Positions 22,486-28,376 of a stretch of 64,000 nucleotides of DNA are shown here, piece after piece. The translations under genes and the position numbers were made by a program. The notes beneath the pieces were generated by a model that saw only the letters and a list, made by a program, of their open reading frames with translations, did not search any database and was not told the DNA's origin. This DNA comes from Phycisphaerae bacterium (GTDB lineage: Bacteria > Planctomycetota > Phycisphaerae > Sedimentisphaerales > SM23-30). The DNA lies in assembly GCA_016342495.1 (NCBI GenBank), contig JAEIOG010000011.1:4330-68329 (forward strand). Reading direction: 5' to 3'. Every line of letters starts with the position of its first letter. Position 1 is the first letter of the stretch.

Positions 22486-23097
22486 TCAAAGAACAGCTGA
22501 CACGGTATTACTTGCCAGAGCCACACCAGCGGGGTTAGTCGCGGTGACAGTATATTCCAGTTGTACGCCGCGGGGTTGATTGGCCAGATAACAATCATTT
22601 GTGAAGCTGGTAGAGACCTGGGCCCACGGGCTAAATACTCCGGCACTGTCTTCGCTGCGGCGGGCGATGATGTAATTGGTCGCCTTACCGCCACTGGAAG
22701 GTTTATTCCATTTGAAGCTGATGTCCCCGGGTCCCTGAGTGACAGCGACAAAGTCTTCGACCTGTCCCGGCGGCAATAGCGGGCTCGGAGCCGACTTGGG
22801 AGCCCAGCCAATTTCATAGAGATTGTCCGGAGTTTCTAAGTTATCAACTTCGGCCTGCTTGAGATCGGCCTTAATGGTTTTGTTCAGGGTCGCCAGCTTT
22901 TCATTTTTGGTATTAACCGCCTGCCGATAGGTGGCCTTGGCGGTTTCCATTGCCGTAACGGCGGTCAGATACTCACTTTGAGCGGTGCTCAGCGGCAGCG
23001 GATCGACATTGGGGAAGTCCGCAGCGTGGGTTGCTAATCCGCTGATGATTTTGTTTGATAAGACAACAATGTCCGACTCATTCTTCGGATACTTCAT
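22486..23097 (-). CDS. fibronectin type III domain protein, function unknown
   Basis: The 203-aa product has no signal peptide. It has a helical N-terminal half and a C-terminal FN3-like fold (ISFKWNKP..ATNYIIARR..YTVTATN). Its G+C is visibly higher than that of its flanks. GGAG precedes the ATG. Confidence 0.6.
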   Translation of the reverse strand: MKYPKNESDIVVLSNKIISGLATHAADFPNVDPLPLSTAQSEYLTAVTAMETAKATYRQAVNTKNEKLATLNKTIKADLKQAEVDNLETPDNLYEIGWAPKSAPSPLLPPGQVEDFVAVTQGPGDISFKWNKPSSGGKATNYIIARRSEDSAGVFSPWAQVSTSFTNDCYLANQPRGVQLEYTVTATNPAGVALASNTVSAVL

Positions 23098-23160
23098 GGT
23101 AAAACTCCATTAAAAAAAAGTAAATTATATTCAATAGCAACCAAAGCTATTGTTTTAATT

Positions 23161-23290
23161 ACAGGCATAAGGGAACTGGCAAAAGATGTAAATGTGCCAA
23201 AGTATGAAAGCTGGCTTTGACACCTGTTGACTGTTCACTTTTAACTGTTAACTTACTTATGCCTTTTGCCTTATGCCTTCTGCCTTCTTA
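23161..23290 (-). repeat. heptamer-armed element B (inverted relative to A)
   Basis: The reverse complement reads GGCAGAA GGCATAA GGCAAAA GGCATAA GTAAGTT AACAGTT AAAAGTG AACAG. The partner arm ACAGGCATAAGGGAACTGGCAAAAG lies at 23161-23185. Confidence 0.7.
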
Positions 23291-23523
23291 AAGTTTGTCA
23301 ATCAAAGTTGTTTTGCTCTATAAAAATTATTGGCAGAAATCCCCGGCGACTTTGAACCGATCAGAAAAATAAATTTGATGCTTTGCCGCTGCCCCCAACC
23401 GCCTGGCCCACAACAATAACCATATCAATACTGAAAAAAGCGATTCAGCTAAAACTGGTAATCGATAAACAAATAAAAAAAAATCTGCTGACTAAAACAA
23501 TTTTCTAAAGAATAGTCCCATAA

Positions 23524-23728
23524 GCAGGTTGAACCTGCACCCAGCAGGCTGAGCCTGCACCCGACTTACATAAGAATCACTGGTTGGCAAGTGCCATCGG
23601 CGTCGTTGCCGCCTGCATCAGCCAGAACGTCGCAGGCCGAGGGAAAATATTGATAAGCGGGGGACCTATTTTGTAGAGAGTTTGCATGCAAACTCTCAGC
23701 ATCCGGCCAAATGGCAGTTGCCAGAGAC
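23524..23728 (-). repeat. R195 element copy 1 (diverged, inverted)
   Basis: It aligns with the copies at 26001 and 26293. The shared blocks are TGGCCGGATGCTGAGA, the 22-nt palindrome, TTTTCCCTCGGCCTGCGAC, CTTATGTAA and the GCAGGTTCAACCTGC hairpin. Confidence 0.75.
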
Positions 23729-23930
23729 AAAAGTTGATCGACTTAGGACAAAAGTGAATCGACTAGAGACAAAAGTCAGTCGACTAGAGACAGAAGTCGA
23801 TCGACTAATGACAAAAGTCAGTCGACTAGAGACAGAAGTCAGTCGACTTAAGACAAAAGTAAGTCGACTTGGGACATAAGTCAGTCGACTAGAGACAAAA
23901 GTGAATCGACTAATGACAATAGTCGCCTGG
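23726..23930 (+). repeat. 21-nt tandem repeat, about 9.7 copies
   Basis: The unit is GACAAAAGTNNNTCGACTANN, with boundaries at 23726, 23747, 23768, 23789, 23810, 23831, 23852, 23873, 23894 and 23915. Confidence 0.9.
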
Positions 23931-24070
23931 AAAAAGGCAGAAGAATCAGGGAAAAAGTAAAAAGTTTAAAGGAAAAAAGCGGTAGCGCTACGCGCTTCAT
24001 TTTAAATAAATCAATGAGCCGCAGGCGAACCCCGCTTTTTTCCTTTTTCCCTTTGCCTTTTTACTTTCCA
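23928..24070 (+). repeat. heptamer-armed hairpin element C
   Basis: The arms are GGAAAAAGGCAGAAG..GGGAAAAAGTAAAAAG..GGAAAAAAGCGG and CCGCTTTTTTCCTTTTTCCCTTTGCCTTTTTACTTTCC. The core is GCGGTAGCGCTACGCGC..TTTTAAAT.. Confidence 0.7.
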
Positions 24071-24100
24071 CGTCCCCCTTGAGCCTCAAACAAATTAATC

Positions 24101-24129
24101 TTGCCCTATAGTAGCCCGGCGATTATAAT
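24101..24129 (+). promoter_or_regulatory. promoter of LRR paralog 1
   Basis: The layout is TTGCCC, a 17-nt spacer, then TATAAT. The same layout is conserved upstream of paralog 2. Confidence 0.55.
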
Positions 24130-24186
24130 AGTTCCATCGGTGACAGATGATTTTTGAGCAATGAACCTGCAATGGAGAGCAAAAAC

Positions 24187-24909
24187 ATGACCAAACAAGT
24201 GAAATTCAGCATTTTATTGACCATAACAGCAACAATAATGCTCGCTTTAACCTGGAATGATATCAAAATACCCTCAACGGCGTTCGATACGCCAGAAGAA
24301 GCCTATGATAAAGCCCTTAGCGAGATTGAAAAGGCCAGAGATAACAAAGATGCCGAGCTTAGGCTTGAAGAAAAGGGCCTGAGCAAGCTACCGGCGGAGA
24401 TTGGTGAGCTTGCTGAACTTCAGGAACTGTATATTAATTTCAATATGTTATCTAGTTTACCGCCTCAGATCGGTAAGTTGACTGCATTGAAATGTCTTTT
24501 TGTGGATGGCAACTATCTGACTGATTTACCCAGGGAGATTGGTCAGCTTAGCAACCTTGAAAGCTTGTCTTTTGCCATGAATAGAATTACTTGCCTGCCA
24601 GAGGAAATCGGAAAGTTATCCAATCTTAAATGTTTATGGCTTAGTGATAATTATATCAATAGAATTTCCTATGAAATCAGCCAATTGAAAAATATTGTTT
24701 GCCTTGATCTTCGTCATAATAAAATCAAAACCCTGCCAAGCAGTATTACCGAAATGAATATGGAGATTCTCTGGGAAGCTGACGGGGTAGCTAAAGGCAT
24801 AAACCTCTATGGCAACCCGCTGGAAGAGCCATCGATTGAGATTGTCAAGCAGGGTAATGCCGCTATTAAGCAGTATTTTGAAGATAAGTCAGAAGGCAAA
24901 GGGCAATAG
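24187..24909 (+). CDS. membrane-anchored/secreted leucine-rich repeat (LRR) protein, paralog 1
   Basis: It has about 23-aa LRR units (LxxLPxEIGxLxxLxxLxLxxN). The ORF track starts at TTG 24154. ATG 24172 is possible, but ATG 24187 lies 9 nt after GGAG and is my choice. Confidence 0.8.
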   Translation: MTKQVKFSILLTITATIMLALTWNDIKIPSTAFDTPEEAYDKALSEIEKARDNKDAELRLEEKGLSKLPAEIGELAELQELYINFNMLSSLPPQIGKLTALKCLFVDGNYLTDLPREIGQLSNLESLSFAMNRITCLPEEIGKLSNLKCLWLSDNYINRISYEISQLKNIVCLDLRHNKIKTLPSSITEMNMEILWEADGVAKGINLYGNPLEEPSIEIVKQGNAAIKQYFEDKSEGKGQ

Positions 24910-25040
24910 GGGTAAGTTGACAGATAAAAAGCGGATGCTTTGGATATTAATTCATTAATAAACGCAAAAGTCGCAAACGACGCAAGGGAGATTGGGTTGG
25001 ATATTGTGATTGCTTTAGCGTCTTTAGCGTCTCTTGCGTT
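24889..25040 (+). repeat. heptamer/nonamer-armed element E
   Basis: The module CAGAAGGCAAAGGGCAATAGGGGTAAGTTGACAGATAAAAAGCGG is homologous to the reverse complement of B and overlaps the last codons of LRR1. The inverted nonamer arrays are ACGCAAAAG TCGCAAACG ACGCAAGGG and CTTTAGCGT CTTTAGCGT CTCTTGCGT. Confidence 0.6.
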
Positions 25041-25065
25041 GAAAATTATCATAAATATATTAATC

Positions 25066-25094
25066 TTGCACGCTGGCGGGGCGGGTTTTATAAT
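25066..25094 (+). promoter_or_regulatory. promoter of LRR paralog 2
   Basis: The layout is TTGCAC, a 17-nt spacer, then TATAAT. The downstream 5' UTR, including CATCGGTGA.(C/G)GATG, is conserved with paralog 1. Confidence 0.55.
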
Positions 25095-25151
25095 ATTTGC
25101 ATCGGTGAGCGATGGTTTGTAAGCAATTAACCCTCAATGGAGAGTGAAAAC

Positions 25152-25919
25152 ATGGTAAAGCGAGCAAGATACAGCGTTTTGGTGGCATTATTGGCAGTTT
25201 TGATGGTTGGTTTAACTTCCTGCAATGGCGGGAAAGTTGGCAAGCAGGCTACTCCGGCGGCAGAAACTGTCACAGAAACCGCCGGGATGACCGCCGAAGA
25301 GCAGGGGGCCTATGATAGAGTCTTCGCTATGATTATAAAGGCCAGAGATGAGCATGCCAGTCGTCTGATAATTAATGAAAAGCACCTAAGCAGGTTGCCA
25401 GAAGACATTGGTGCCCTTACTGAGCTTGCGGGATTATTTATTGGGGATACAAATATATCCACTTTGCCGCCGGAGATCGGTAAATTGGCTGCATTAGAGT
25501 CCCTTCTCATCAATAACAGCCCGCTAAAAGCCTTGCCGAGGGAAATCGGCCAGCTTGGCAGGCTTGATACTTTGATGGTTAGCAATTGTCAGCTGTTAAG
25601 TCTGCCGCCAGAGATCGGAAATTTGTCCAATCTACGTCATATGATACTTGACGAGAATAAAATATGCAGCCTGCCCCGACAAATCATCCAATTAACCAAG
25701 CTTAATAGTATTGATCTTCGCGAAAATCAATTTAAAACCCTGCCGAGCTGGATTACCGAAATGAATATGGATATTGCCTGCCAGGTTCGTTCGCATCCGC
25801 AACTCATCAACCTCCACGGCAACCCGCTGGAAGAGCCACCGATTGAGATTGTCAAGCAGGGTAATGCCGCTATTAAGCAGTATTTTGAGGATAAGGGTGA
25901 GGAAAAAAGCGAAAATTAA
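25152..25919 (+). CDS. membrane-anchored/secreted leucine-rich repeat (LRR) protein, paralog 2
   Basis: It has the same architecture as 24187-24909. The ORF track starts at ATG 25137, and ATG 25152 follows GGAGAG. The last 26 codons before the short C-terminal tail are nearly identical to paralog 1. Confidence 0.8.
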   Translation: MVKRARYSVLVALLAVLMVGLTSCNGGKVGKQATPAAETVTETAGMTAEEQGAYDRVFAMIIKARDEHASRLIINEKHLSRLPEDIGALTELAGLFIGDTNISTLPPEIGKLAALESLLINNSPLKALPREIGQLGRLDTLMVSNCQLLSLPPEIGNLSNLRHMILDENKICSLPRQIIQLTKLNSIDLRENQFKTLPSWITEMNMDIACQVRSHPQLINLHGNPLEEPPIEIVKQGNAAIKQYFEDKGEEKSEN

Positions 25920-25972
25920 TTGAGAATTGACAATTGAGAATTGACAATGGCCGGATCGCTTCCGCTTTCTGG
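25899..25972 (+). repeat. element F with 14-nt tandem repeat
   Basis: GAGGAAAAAAGCGAAAA shares GGAAAAAAGCG with element C and overlaps the last codons of LRR2. AATTGAGAATTGAC is repeated about 2.3 times (25918-25948). The partner arm is CGCTTCCGCTTTCTG. Confidence 0.6.
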
Positions 25973-26000
25973 GTTTGATGATATGTTGGAAGGCTTAACT

Positions 26001-26195
26001 CATTTGACCGTTGTCTCTGATGACTGACATCTGGCCGGATGCTGAGACGTTGCATGCAACGTCTCTACAAATGTGTCACGGGCGTATTGATCTTTTCCCT
26101 CGGCCTGCGACATCCAGTCTGATGCAGCGCCCAACGGAAGCGGGAGCACCCACCGACCATGATCCTTATGTAATTTGTGTGCAGGTTCAACCTGC
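26001..26195 (+). repeat. R195 element copy 2
   Basis: This is a direct repeat of 26293-26488 at about 95 % identity by hand count. The palindrome GAGACGTTGCATGCAACGTCTC lies at 26044-26065. Confidence 0.9.
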
Positions 26196-26292
26196 CGGGG
26201 GAAGGTTCAAGTTGGGAGGGGGGTTATTTATCCAGGGCGTTGCCCTGGGCTAAGTTATATTAGCCCTTCGGGCCGCCGGAACGTCTATGTGA

Positions 26293-26488
26293 CATTTGAC
26301 CGGAGTCTCTGGTGACTGACATCTGGCCGGATGCTGAGACGTTGCATGCAACGTCTCTACAAATGTGTCACGGGCGTATTGATCTTTTCCCTCGGCCTGC
26401 GACATCCAGTCTGATGCAGCGCCCAACGGAAGTAGGAGCACTCACCGACCAGTGACGCTTATGTAATTTGTGTGCAGGTTCAACCTGC
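26293..26488 (+). repeat. R195 element copy 3
   Basis: This is a direct repeat of 26001-26195. Its terminal hairpin GCAGGTTCAACCTGC is followed by a T-rich tract (TTTGGTTTTTTCTTT). Confidence 0.9.
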
Positions 26489-26532
26489 TTTGGTTTTTTC
26501 TTTGTGAAATTTGTGCAAATTGGGTGCGAATC

Positions 26533-26541
26533 TGCTATAAT
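26533..26541 (+). promoter_or_regulatory. extended -10 element (TGCTATAAT) of mnmG
   Basis: This TGnTATAAT ends 8 nt before the mnmG ATG, and no Shine-Dalgarno sequence lies between them. Confidence 0.4.
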
Positions 26542-26549
26542 CTCCGGTT

Positions 26550-28376
26550 ATGCGAAAAGAATATGATATAATTGTAGTTGGCGGCGGTCATGCCGGGGTC
26601 GAAGCGGCTTATGCCGCAGCTAAAACCGGCTTGCAGGTGGCCTTAGTAACCATGAACCGGGGTACCATCGCCCAGATGAGCTGTAATCCGGCCATCGGTG
26701 GGCTGGCCAAAGGCCAGATTGCCCGGGAAGTCGATGCCTTAGGCGGGGTAATGGGCCTGGCGATCGATGCTTCTGGCATCCAGTTCCGTATGCTCAATCG
26801 CCGCAAGGGCCCGGCAGTCTGGGCACCGCGGGCTCAGGCCGACAAACATGGCTATGAAAAGTTCGTGCAGGACTTTTTGGCCAGTGTCGATGGCTTGACG
26901 ATTATCGAGGATATGGCACTAGGCATAAGGCATAAGGCACAAGGCATAAGTAAGAGAATTACTGGCATTGAATGTCAAAAGTATGGCGTTTTACATGCTA
27001 AGGCAGTTGTGATTACCGCCGGGACATTTTTGCGGGGACTGATGCATATCGGCTCCGAGCAAATTCAAGGGGGCCGTTATGGCGAAGCAGCTTCCAATGC
27101 CCTTAGTCAATCTTTAATCGAAGCCGGCTTTGAGCTGGGCAGACTCAAGACGGGCACTCCGGCCCGGATCGATGCTGACACCATCAATTATGATAAGCTC
27201 GAGAGACAGCCCGGTGATGAAAAATGTGAGCCGTTCAGCTATCTCAATAAGGAAATCACCAATAAGCAGGTGGATTGCTGGATAACCTATACCAATGAAG
27301 GCACACATGCCCTGATTCGGGACAATCTGGACCGTAGCCCGATGTATAATGACCAGATACAAAGCACCGGGCCCCGCTATTGCCCCAGTATCGAAACCAA
27401 GATTGTCCGCTTTAGTGATAAGGACCGCCACCAGATCTTTTTAGAACCTGAAGGACTCGATACTAACTGGGTTTATTGCAATGGGATATCCAATTCTCTG
27501 CCGATTGACCTGCAGGATAAGCTGATCGCCAGTATCGAAGGTTTACAGCAGGCCAAAATTCTCCGTTATGCCTATGCTATTGAATATGACTATGTCCCTC
27601 CGACCCAGATACGGGCGACTCTGGAAAGTAAGCTCATCGATGGACTGTTCTTGGCCGGTCAGATCAATGGAACCAGCGGTTATGAAGAAGCTGCCGGACA
27701 GGGTCTTGTCGCCGGGGTCAATGCCACCGCCTTTATCAAGGGCACCGAGCCGCTGATCCTCGGACGCGATGCCGCTTATATCGGGGTTATGATCGATGAC
27801 TTAGTTACCAAAGGCGTAGATGAACCTTATAGAATGTTTACCAGCCGGGCGGAGTATCGTTTATTGCTACGGGCTGACAATGCCGATGAACGTCTGACCT
27901 CTCTGGCATTTGACTATGGTATTATTGAAGACCAGCGTTGGGATGTGTTCGAAGCTAAGCAAAGGCAAAAGCAGGAAATCACAGATTATCTGCATAATAA
28001 TAAACTCGATGGCCAGGATTTAACCTTATTGCTGCGTCAGCAGGATCATGACTTGCCCTGGCTGCTGGAAAGCTGCCCGGAGCTGGCCGCTAAGGGATAT
28101 GATCATTATGCTCTGGAGTCTGTGGTCTGCGATATGCGCTATGTGGGCTATGTGCAAAAGCAGCTTAAGCTCATCGAGAAGTTTCGCAAGAATGAAAATG
28201 TCAGACTGCCGCGGGATTTGGACTATCACAAAATCAGTCAATTGCGTTATGAAGCCCGGGAAAAGCTTAATTATGTCCAGCCAGCCAATCTCGGTCAGGC
28301 AAGTCGGGTTAGCGGGATCAATCCAGCCGATATTACCGTGCTGATGATATATCTGAAAAAGCTTGGCAAAGCATAA
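26550..28376 (+). CDS. mnmG: tRNA uridine-5-carboxymethylaminomethyl(34) synthesis enzyme MnmG (GidA)
   Basis: The 608-aa product has DIIVVGGGHAGVEAA, MSCNPAIGG.AKG, GPRYCPSIE, QINGTSGYEEAA and TSRAEYRLLLR, and is collinear with MnmG over its full length. Confidence 0.95.
   Translation: MRKEYDIIVVGGGHAGVEAAYAAAKTGLQVALVTMNRGTIAQMSCNPAIGGLAKGQIAREVDALGGVMGLAIDASGIQFRMLNRRKGPAVWAPRAQADKHGYEKFVQDFLASVDGLTIIEDMALGIRHKAQGISKRITGIECQKYGVLHAKAVVITAGTFLRGLMHIGSEQIQGGRYGEAASNALSQSLIEAGFELGRLKTGTPARIDADTINYDKLERQPGDEKCEPFSYLNKEITNKQVDCWITYTNEGTHALIRDNLDRSPMYNDQIQSTGPRYCPSIETKIVRFSDKDRHQIFLEPEGLDTNWVYCNGISNSLPIDLQDKLIASIEGLQQAKILRYAYAIEYDYVPPTQIRATLESKLIDGLFLAGQINGTSGYEEAAGQGLVAGVNATAFIKGTEPLILGRDAAYIGVMIDDLVTKGVDEPYRMFTSRAEYRLLLRADNADERLTSLAFDYGIIEDQRWDVFEAKQRQKQEITDYLHNNKLDGQDLTLLLRQQDHDLPWLLESCPELAAKGYDHYALESVVCDMRYVGYVQKQLKLIEKFRKNENVRLPRDLDYHKISQLRYEAREKLNYVQPANLGQASRVSGINPADITVLMIYLKKLGKA
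26922..26954 (+). repeat. heptamer-repeat module embedded in the mnmG coding sequence
   Basis: GGCATAAGGCATAAGGCACAAGGCATAAGTAAG matches the reverse complement of 23252-23284 at 31 of 33 positions. Confidence 0.85.

Follow-up and report, generated by a model that had tools for sequence, protein, structure and literature searches.

In Escherichia coli, bacterial interspersed mosaic elements (BIMEs) are mosaics of Y, Z1 and Z2 repetitive extragenic palindromes (REPs) with conserved linkers, and REP clusters or REP doublets forming hairpins (REPINs) occur in Pseudomonas and Xanthomonas (PMC2817692, PMC3733652). Among the tyrosine transposases associated with REPs (RAYTs, or TnpA_REP proteins), Quentin et al. 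2018 (PMC6006769) describe a subclass 2.4 of about 194 aa with the motifs NH[IFV]H, WQ and YIxNNP, and with double-foot REPs, REPs lying in frame inside the gene, and a distribution scattered across phyla. In the present study, we followed up three copies of a roughly 195-nt element in a 64,000-nt stretch of DNA from a marine Phycisphaerae bacterium (the window, whose numbering is used below; it lies on contig C133 of a 5.4-Mb genome in 221 contigs), which an original prediction, made from the letters of the window, had taken for a structured RNA or a protein-binding module. With a probability of roughly 0.8, we read the three copies as belonging to a BIME-like mosaic repeat that is non-coding, specific to this lineage and composed of hairpin modules with conserved linkers, that is, as selfish REP-type DNA and not as regulatory RNA.

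The palindrome of the element, here called HP1, carries most of this argument. Genome-wide, 82 HP1 hairpins were located on more than 60 contigs, 78 of them with the tetranucleotide GTAG directly abutting the stem (on one strand in 65, on both strands in 13), and more than 50 are singletons standing in unique flanks. Just 9 of the 101 tagged sides fall within crude gene calls; between convergent genes, which account for 13% of the intergenic length, 32% of the copies are found, and the hairpins are depleted between divergent genes. With its foot tag, its dispersed extragenic copies and its REPtron (a transposase gene flanked by the REP, described below), HP1 is a canonical GTAG-tagged double-foot REP. 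It was therefore not the best choice to call the palindrome part of a structured RNA or a protein-binding module, as the original prediction did, when it is a GTAG-tagged REP with a predicted cognate RAYT. The stem occurs in several alleles, the commonest being CAAGG with 63 copies, and CGTTG accounts for 14. The strand that bears the GTAG tag is more often the locally C-rich one (57 versus 32 tagged sides, double-foot copies included), a bias that may be confounded by gene orientation.

The same REP is common to other lineages and was probably acquired. A 24-mer made of the tag and the commonest allele is found exactly in at least 118 stretches of species-representative genomes, and among the matches listed are genomes of Bacteroidota, Desulfobacterota, Gamma-, Beta- and Alphaproteobacteria, Deinococcota, Cyanobacteria, Ignavibacteriota, Cloacimonadota, WOR-3 and Planctomycetota, some of them from cultured isolates; in these listed matches the foreign HP1 mostly takes the form of a double-foot palindrome of 28 nt with unique flanks. 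This 28-mer, in which the CAAGG-allele stem of HP1 stands between a GTAG foot and a CTAC foot, is letter-identical in at least nine phyla (loci L047-L164), and in complete foreign genomes HP1 is multi-copy, with 5-72 copies per genome. In many foreign genomes, the REP was also observed at the tip of arms built from short tandem words. Within the family the tagged HP1 is patchy, since among 24 relatives searched we found five copies in one (G004) and a single non-pairing pattern match in another (G001), and in the literature searched there was no occurrence of the palindrome sequence.

One of the foreign loci (L155) has HP1 within a Y1-like gene of 192 aa and in its reading frame; this is a RAYT gene of subclass 2.4, in which the 28-mer is translated as VETRHALSL. 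Among the matches listed, homologues of this protein were detected at 11 of the 118 foreign HP1 loci, with HP1 within the gene in seven of them and about 70-200 nt away in the others. Such a REP, in frame within the gene of its own transposase, suggests that the two may travel together as a self-seeding unit. In the present genome, the L155 homologue (45% identity, E 3e-50) is a 198-aa open reading frame at C29:18581-19177, which is bracketed by two direct 37-nt HP1 units, one abutting the start and one about 30 nt downstream, with a third, inverted HP1 situated 99 nt upstream of the gene. All three are of the CGTTG allele, as in copies 2 and 3 of the window. The C29 protein carries the motifs NHVH, WQ and YILNNP and is the predicted cognate RAYT of HP1, assigned from its sequence to TnpA_REP subclass 2.4 or group 4 of Bertels; accepting this prediction, HP1 belongs to a published REP/RAYT subclass, and its cognate RAYT in this genome is identified here.

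Six further RAYT-like genes, detected with Pfam, were considered as partners of the element and rejected, each being flanked by a different repeat and none by the 195-nt element. As each of the six has its own flanking repeat, the genome holds several REPtrons, at least four besides that of HP1. One of these REPs, that of the gene on C147, consists of a GTAG foot and a GACAAGCA stem, and it has the start GTAG-GACAAG in common with HP1.

In the 195-nt element, HP1 is one module of a mosaic. The genome-wide collection of copies that the original prediction had advised, run with BLAST and nhmmer, yielded 89 nhmmer matches in the same genome, about 29 of them near full length and about 60 partial, the latter being stand-alone 3' halves, solo palindromes and head-to-tail arrays (e.g., C11:13029-13601). 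Practically all copies are intergenic, and their true number is probably higher, since many stand at contig ends. Alignment of the full-length copies with their flanks gave the order of the modules: a unit of about 35 nt, HP1, a linker, a second and related unit of about 35 nt, a middle module, a conserved box (…CTTATGTAA…), and one or two copies of a terminal hairpin (HPt), at which homology stops. Besides two alleles, the middle module shows hybrid forms, and the upstream flanks consist of further repeated modules, namely a spacer resembling the Acido-Lenti-1 RNA motif, a 21-nt tandem array and the REP of another REPtron. In two variant copies (C167, C218), the REP of the C147 REPtron takes the exact position of HP1. 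The two hairpins are tagged in opposite orientation, HP1 on the minus strand of the element and HPt on the plus strand, and the linkers are conserved.

The terminal hairpin was counted 83 times in the genome, always with a TCA loop, and in 72 cases its stem is preceded on the 5' side by a tag, GTGT or GGGT; three stem alleles are about equally frequent, and 46 of the hairpins come after the conserved box. HPt as a class of intrinsic terminators was rejected, a T-run (at least 4 T within 10 nt) following just 9 of the 83, copy 3 among the nine. A search for HPt in five foreign HP1-bearing genomes found none, and HPt is a second, lineage-specific tagged hairpin family among the genomes searched. 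The complete element was not found by BLAST in 30 relatives, and a pattern for its 3' module, with 56 sites in its own genome, gave one chance-level match with a mismatch in 400 genomes of the class and no match among metagenome contigs of the Joint Genome Institute (JGI). The occurrence of HP1 in other lineages and of HPt only here points to a REP that is shared and probably acquired, and to a mosaic that is home-grown.

Within the window, the descriptive part of the original prediction was confirmed throughout. Copies 2 and 3 are direct repeats 97 nt apart, with 96% identity over 159 nt and 94% over 36 nt and one 1-nt indel between them (sequence reading, repeat finder), while copy 1 is an inverted, diverged copy with about 77% identity to copy 3. 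The perfect 22-nt palindromes are present at 26044-26065 and 26336-26357, as is the doubly compensated version at 23676-23697 in copy 1; the terminal hairpin of copy 1 is indeed doubled (23524-23538 and 23544-23558), with compensatory stem changes. The T-rich tract after the hairpin of copy 3 (26474-26488) exists as described, and a terminator scan flags the site as terminator-like. The frequent 1-nt indels among copies agree with the claim that the element is non-coding. Additionally, the copy-spacer-copy layout of copies 2 and 3 was seen again on contigs C55 and C35.

Covariation was evaluated by RNAalifold on 24 copies together with pair counts and slid-partner controls. The nine pairs of HP1 are 98% paired, with four changed on both sides, and the six pairs of HPt are 100% paired, with three changed on both sides. 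Thus the compensatory changes put forward by the original prediction are real in both hairpins, but no convincing covariation exists in any other helix, the long-range RNAalifold helices having been rejected because they do not vary, pair poorly or break in module variants. Variation takes discrete forms, with three main stems in HP1 and three in HPt, and in HP1 the foot GTAGAGA is fixed and the inner stem varies. Two loop variants of HP1, GGTG and GGCG, keep the hairpin and break the DNA dyad, so that a hairpin in a single strand is favoured over a dimer site on duplex DNA. Single copies fold modestly better than shuffles, both as RNA (z = -2.3) and as DNA (z = -2.8). The covariation would then reflect selection for hairpins that exist as a few discrete, recombining alleles, most likely in single-stranded DNA and not in a structured RNA, and we infer that the compensatory changes answer to the hairpin requirement of an HUH transposase acting on single-stranded DNA.

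These results lead us to the following scenario. The HP1 hairpin, when formed in single-stranded DNA, would be the recognition element of the subclass 2.4 TnpA_REP/RAYT encoded by the C29 gene, and the different versions of the palindrome would be alternative REP alleles, with pairing required in the stem, an unchanging foot GTAGAGA and a freely variable inner stem. The mosaic may have spread and been reshuffled via hairpin-directed cleavage and joining of single strands; exchange between copies, by recombination or gene conversion, may reshuffle it as well. The copies, mostly located at gene 3' ends, may serve as mRNA 3' structures, and copy 3 probably ends the transcript of the neighbouring leucine-rich repeat (LRR) genes before the promoter of mnmG. 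Finally, inverted pairs of copies with their tails (the terminal hairpins) outward would delimit islands that act as duplicated or mobilised units.

Several observations weigh against reading the element as REP-type DNA served by the C29 enzyme. HPt has no RAYT alongside, and its tag differs from the canonical GT[AG]G; the commonest HP1 allele, CAAGG, differs from the CGTTG allele flanking the C29 gene. The association of full-length copies with LRR genes, set out below, is unexplained by the REP/BIME model and is not known from REPs or BIMEs, and we saw neither a transposition event nor an empty site nor a target-site signature. Furthermore, the C29 protein reaches 17.3 bits with Pfam Y1_Tnp, where the cut-off is 23, and its homologue L155 reaches 63.1 bits with NCBIfam NF047646, where it is 80. 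As a consequence of these scores below the curated cut-offs, the assignment to the subclass rests on the motifs and on homology to foreign HP1-linked genes, and the C29 gene was missed by the first Pfam scan and found only via the foreign loci; both models appear to be built on other subclasses. The original prediction had also allowed that the copies might prove to be fragments of a known insertion sequence or MITE (a miniature transposable element with inverted repeats). This came true in so far as the element belongs to a known class of mobile repeat, but not in its details, since 29 copies aligned with their flanks showed neither terminal inverted repeats between the element ends nor a duplicated flank.

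The link to LRR genes is an unusual property of the full-length copies, 17 of 29 lying at most 750 nt from one of 19 LRR paralogues, as only 1.5% of intergenic positions do (binomial P ~4e-24 by copy and 3e-12 by locus, the copies not being independent). Among neighbouring pairs on opposite strands, nine are tails-out and one is tails-in, a count that overstates independence, as several islands are paralogous. The tails-out pairs delimit islands of 1.8-4 kb with LRR genes, two tetratricopeptide repeat (TPR) genes (C11) or two unknown 208-aa genes (C125), and no transposase gene was enclosed by them. The window island is colinear with an island on C55 whose neighbours are different, namely a glycosyltransferase and a transporter; identity is 79% in the left segment (23523-24880) and 89% in the right one (25939-26487), the outer hairpins mark both limits of the homology, the LRR bodies reach just 65-70% nucleotide identity, and the same 21-nt array stands at the same position. 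The island at 23524-26488 therefore combines inverted ends, passenger genes and occurrence at more than one site, by which cassettes and composite transposons are recognised.

In their pattern, the islands behave like cassettes that were duplicated or moved via their ends, their mobility being putative. No duplication was seen at the island ends. For the genes on either side of the C55 island, a search of 20 relatives gave orthologues with 37-49% identity and without conserved neighbours; the relatives are too distant and synteny is lost, so that no empty site was recovered for the island. A stronger version of this idea, in which the 195-nt mosaics, as hairpin-ended tails-out pairs, are the working ends of transposase-less cassettes and an HUH/RAYT-type enzyme acting in trans excises and re-inserts 2-4 kb islands with genes for LRR, TPR and other repeat proteins, seems to us rather unlikely.

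The LRR genes are themselves mosaic in their conservation. Within pairs of LRR paralogues (the two window genes and those on C55, C33, C35, C125, C23, C213, C167), hardly any difference exists in the promoter, the 5' untranslated region (UTR) and the first codons, and the final ~90 nt agree at 95% (24798-24888 versus 25805-25895); the bodies are 40-57% identical in protein, and there are tandem fusions of up to 1404 aa. Such a pattern points to gene conversion at the ends or, alternatively, to diversifying selection on the bodies. Another paralogous family, with 11 members, often adjoins mosaic copies or part-copies (C11, C218, C180, C13, C80); in the window, it is represented by a 203-aa protein at 22486-23097 on the minus strand with a weak fibronectin-III (FN3) match.

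We consider improbable a reading of the element as small structured RNAs or elements of the 3' UTR, a family transcribed together with the LRR genes or following them, whose hairpins are selected at the RNA level for stability, termination or regulation. Such a family would fit the fact that all nine full-length copies downstream of LRR genes lie on the gene's strand, three of them beginning 53-73 nt past the stop codon, and that the upstream gene is co-oriented for 29 of the 46 3' modules (the orientation of these modules showed no association with local GC skew); the terminator-like hairpin with its T-tract at the end of copy 3, the RNA fold mentioned above and the known ability of REPs elsewhere to stabilise upstream mRNA, as stated in PMC6006769, point the same way. 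However, in the Rfam scan that had been recommended as a check, run over 22500-27500 with E up to 1, no family matched the element, and the covariation is confined to two short hairpins, DNA palindromes that fold equally on both strands; for these two reasons, a structured non-coding RNA family was rejected. The proposed long-range helices either show no variation or break in module variants, folding as DNA is no less significant than folding as RNA, and the T-run is rare among terminal hairpins. In addition, the modules occur solo, in tandem arrays and in either orientation relative to genes, including positions upstream of genes and between divergent genes, which further weakens the inference of a structured RNA, and copy 1 has no co-oriented upstream gene.

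Very unlikely, in our judgement, is a passive role, in which the repeats are conserved flanks copied along with the LRR genes by segmental duplication, without mobility of their own. The LRR islands do come in paralogous pairs with near-identical 5' regions, and tandem LRR duplications and fusions are common. Nevertheless, 12 of the 29 full-length copies and most partial ones stand away from LRR genes, and the element is 82-100% identical where the adjoining LRR 3' ends are unrelated (26-48%), which argues that it is not a passive passenger; in the comparison of the two islands the flanks (79-89%) are more alike than the coding bodies, the opposite of passive divergence.

Scarcely credible is a double-stranded operator for a dimeric regulator, with the element as a regulatory module of the LRR and FN3-like families, for although most copies have perfect dyad symmetry and the full-length elements are strongly associated with LRR paralogues, most of the 82 palindromes stand solo at the 3' ends of unrelated genes, the loop variants lose the dyad and keep the hairpin, the inner-stem alleles differ at 4-5 positions per half-site, which is beyond the tolerance of a sequence-specific regulator, and the same sequence is multi-copy across many phyla and physically linked to a RAYT gene.

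Other candidates were set aside on reading as well: template or variable repeats of a diversity-generating retroelement, as copies 2 and 3 do not differ in an adenine-specific way; integron attC sites and CRISPR, to which spacing and architecture are unfit; and ends of IS200/IS605 or guide RNAs of TnpB/IscB, no such gene having been seen beside any copy, with TnpB/IscB not explicitly searched.

The features of the window and the further RAYT-like genes are collected in Table 1. Among the neighbouring repeats, the 21-nt array comprises ten units, each with GTCGAC. For the spacer between copies 2 and 3, the match covers the Acido-Lenti-1 model in full, with 26.1 bits against a gathering score of 37; this spacer has about seven genomic copies, always as part of the repeat mosaic, which hints that this Rfam motif may itself derive from repeats in some lineages. 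Hairpins with purine-rich or heptamer-word arms were also noted at 23952-24062 and at 23252-23286 and 26921-26954, one of them within mnmG. A search of sequencing runs returned one marine-sediment DNA run with a strain of ~94-95% identity, in which one contig connects the end of copy 3 to mnmG, and no RNA run was listed; presence/absence polymorphism of the copies was not found in the DNA run of this strain. By exact look-up, the MnmG and LRR2 proteins were not on record in other assemblies.

Table 1. Positions of the repeat modules and genes discussed in the text (window numbering unless a contig is given).
Feature	Position	Strand	Remarks
Copy 1, ~195-nt mosaic element	23524..23728	-	nhmmer 251 bits; left end of LRR island, tail (terminal hairpins) outward
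Copy 2, mosaic element	26001..26195	+	nhmmer 263 bits; begins 73 nt past the stop codon of LRR gene 2
Copy 3, mosaic element	26293..26488	+	nhmmer 253 bits; right end of LRR island, mnmG promoter directly downstream
HP1 REP of copy 1	23673..23696	+	GTAG tag, then 20-nt hairpin; rare GTTTG stem allele
HP1 REP of copy 2	26045..26068	-	GTAG on the minus strand; CGTTG stem allele, as around the RAYT on C29
HP1 REP of copy 3	26337..26360	-	CGTTG allele
Two tandem HPt of copy 1	23524..23562	-	each with GGGT tag, 6-bp stem and TCA loop; the stems are two different alleles
HPt of copy 2	26177..26195	+	GTGT tag; no T-tract after it
HPt of copy 3	26470..26498	+	GTGT tag, then T-rich tract; sole terminator-like copy in the window
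Spacer module between copies 2 and 3	26231..26275	+	two small hairpins, weak likeness to Rfam Acido-Lenti-1
21-nt tandem array, inner side of copy 1	23723..23974		repeat finder; the C55 island has an equivalent
LRR gene 1	24154..24909	+	island cargo; probable start ATG at 24187
LRR gene 2	25137..25919	+	island cargo
LRR island	23524..26488		tails-out inverted mosaic elements at both ends; C55 homology from 23523 to 26487
Six further RAYT-like (Pfam Y1) genes	C147:4737-5354, C139:55627-56184, C120:3114-3695, C197:467-1141, C114:174-731, C42:19127-19711		own flanking repeats

For annotation, the lesson is that compensatory changes in a repeated palindrome with a GTAG foot, in a genome with a RAYT, are no evidence for a regulatory RNA, and the element should be annotated as REP/BIME-type repeat DNA. 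Two findings go beyond routine: a REP that is multi-copy and the same to the letter in at least nine phyla, often in frame within the gene of its transposase, and, in this genome, a REP built into a larger mosaic that brackets LRR/TPR islands, the ends of which are more conserved than the coding bodies. If it is true that the islands move via their hairpin ends, this would be a new way for REP systems to carry cargo and to diversify surface-protein families; if the mosaics are indeed the ends of cassettes, a 'domesticated' REP system would be driving the shuffling of surface-protein genes, with conserved ends and fast-diverging bodies.

Mobile insertion cassettes and composite transposons are inverted pairs of elements around passenger genes without a transposase among them, an arrangement that recurs in the LRR islands; the island also resembles them in having a paralogous island elsewhere and homology that ends at the termini. 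The termini of the element being hairpins, HUH-type single-strand chemistry would be expected here, and not DDE chemistry. MITEs are non-autonomous, as is the element, whereas the 195-nt unit is without terminal inverted repeats and no target-site duplications were seen. The likeness to the Acido-Lenti-1 RNA (RF01687, Weinberg et al. 2010, PMC2864571) extends over the whole model, two hairpins and a linker, but with a score below gathering, and it is limited to the spacer, which is here a module of a repeat mosaic.

Closer relatives are the BIMEs of E. coli and the REPINs of Pseudomonas and Xanthomonas (PMC2817692, PMC3733652), in which, as in our mosaic, oppositely tagged hairpins are joined by conserved linkers, each module has several alleles, modules are mixed and amplified in tandem, and the location is intergenic. 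In contrast to BIMEs, only HP1 is a canonical REP here, HPt having a non-canonical tag and no RAYT alongside; the unit is longer (~195 nt), with an internal duplication of about 35 nt, and the mosaic is strongly associated with one gene family.

Closest of all are the subclass-2.4 REPtrons, as far as they are described in the available portion of PMC6006769. They have GTAG at the foot of the stem and often CTAC at the other foot, like HP1, and REPs that are multi-copy, extragenic and enriched at gene 3' ends, like HP1 again; a gene of about 190 aa of the HUH/Y1 type, with NHVH, WQ and YILNNP and flanked by the REP, is common to both. The published subclass has a REP in frame inside the gene, which is so for HP1 in other phyla but not in this genome, and the allele flanking the RAYT here is a minority allele. 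That portion of the paper does not mention a REP that is letter-identical across nine or more phyla. Lastly, in departure from subclass 2.4, about a third of the REPs of this genome are embedded in a larger, fixed mosaic of 195 nt.

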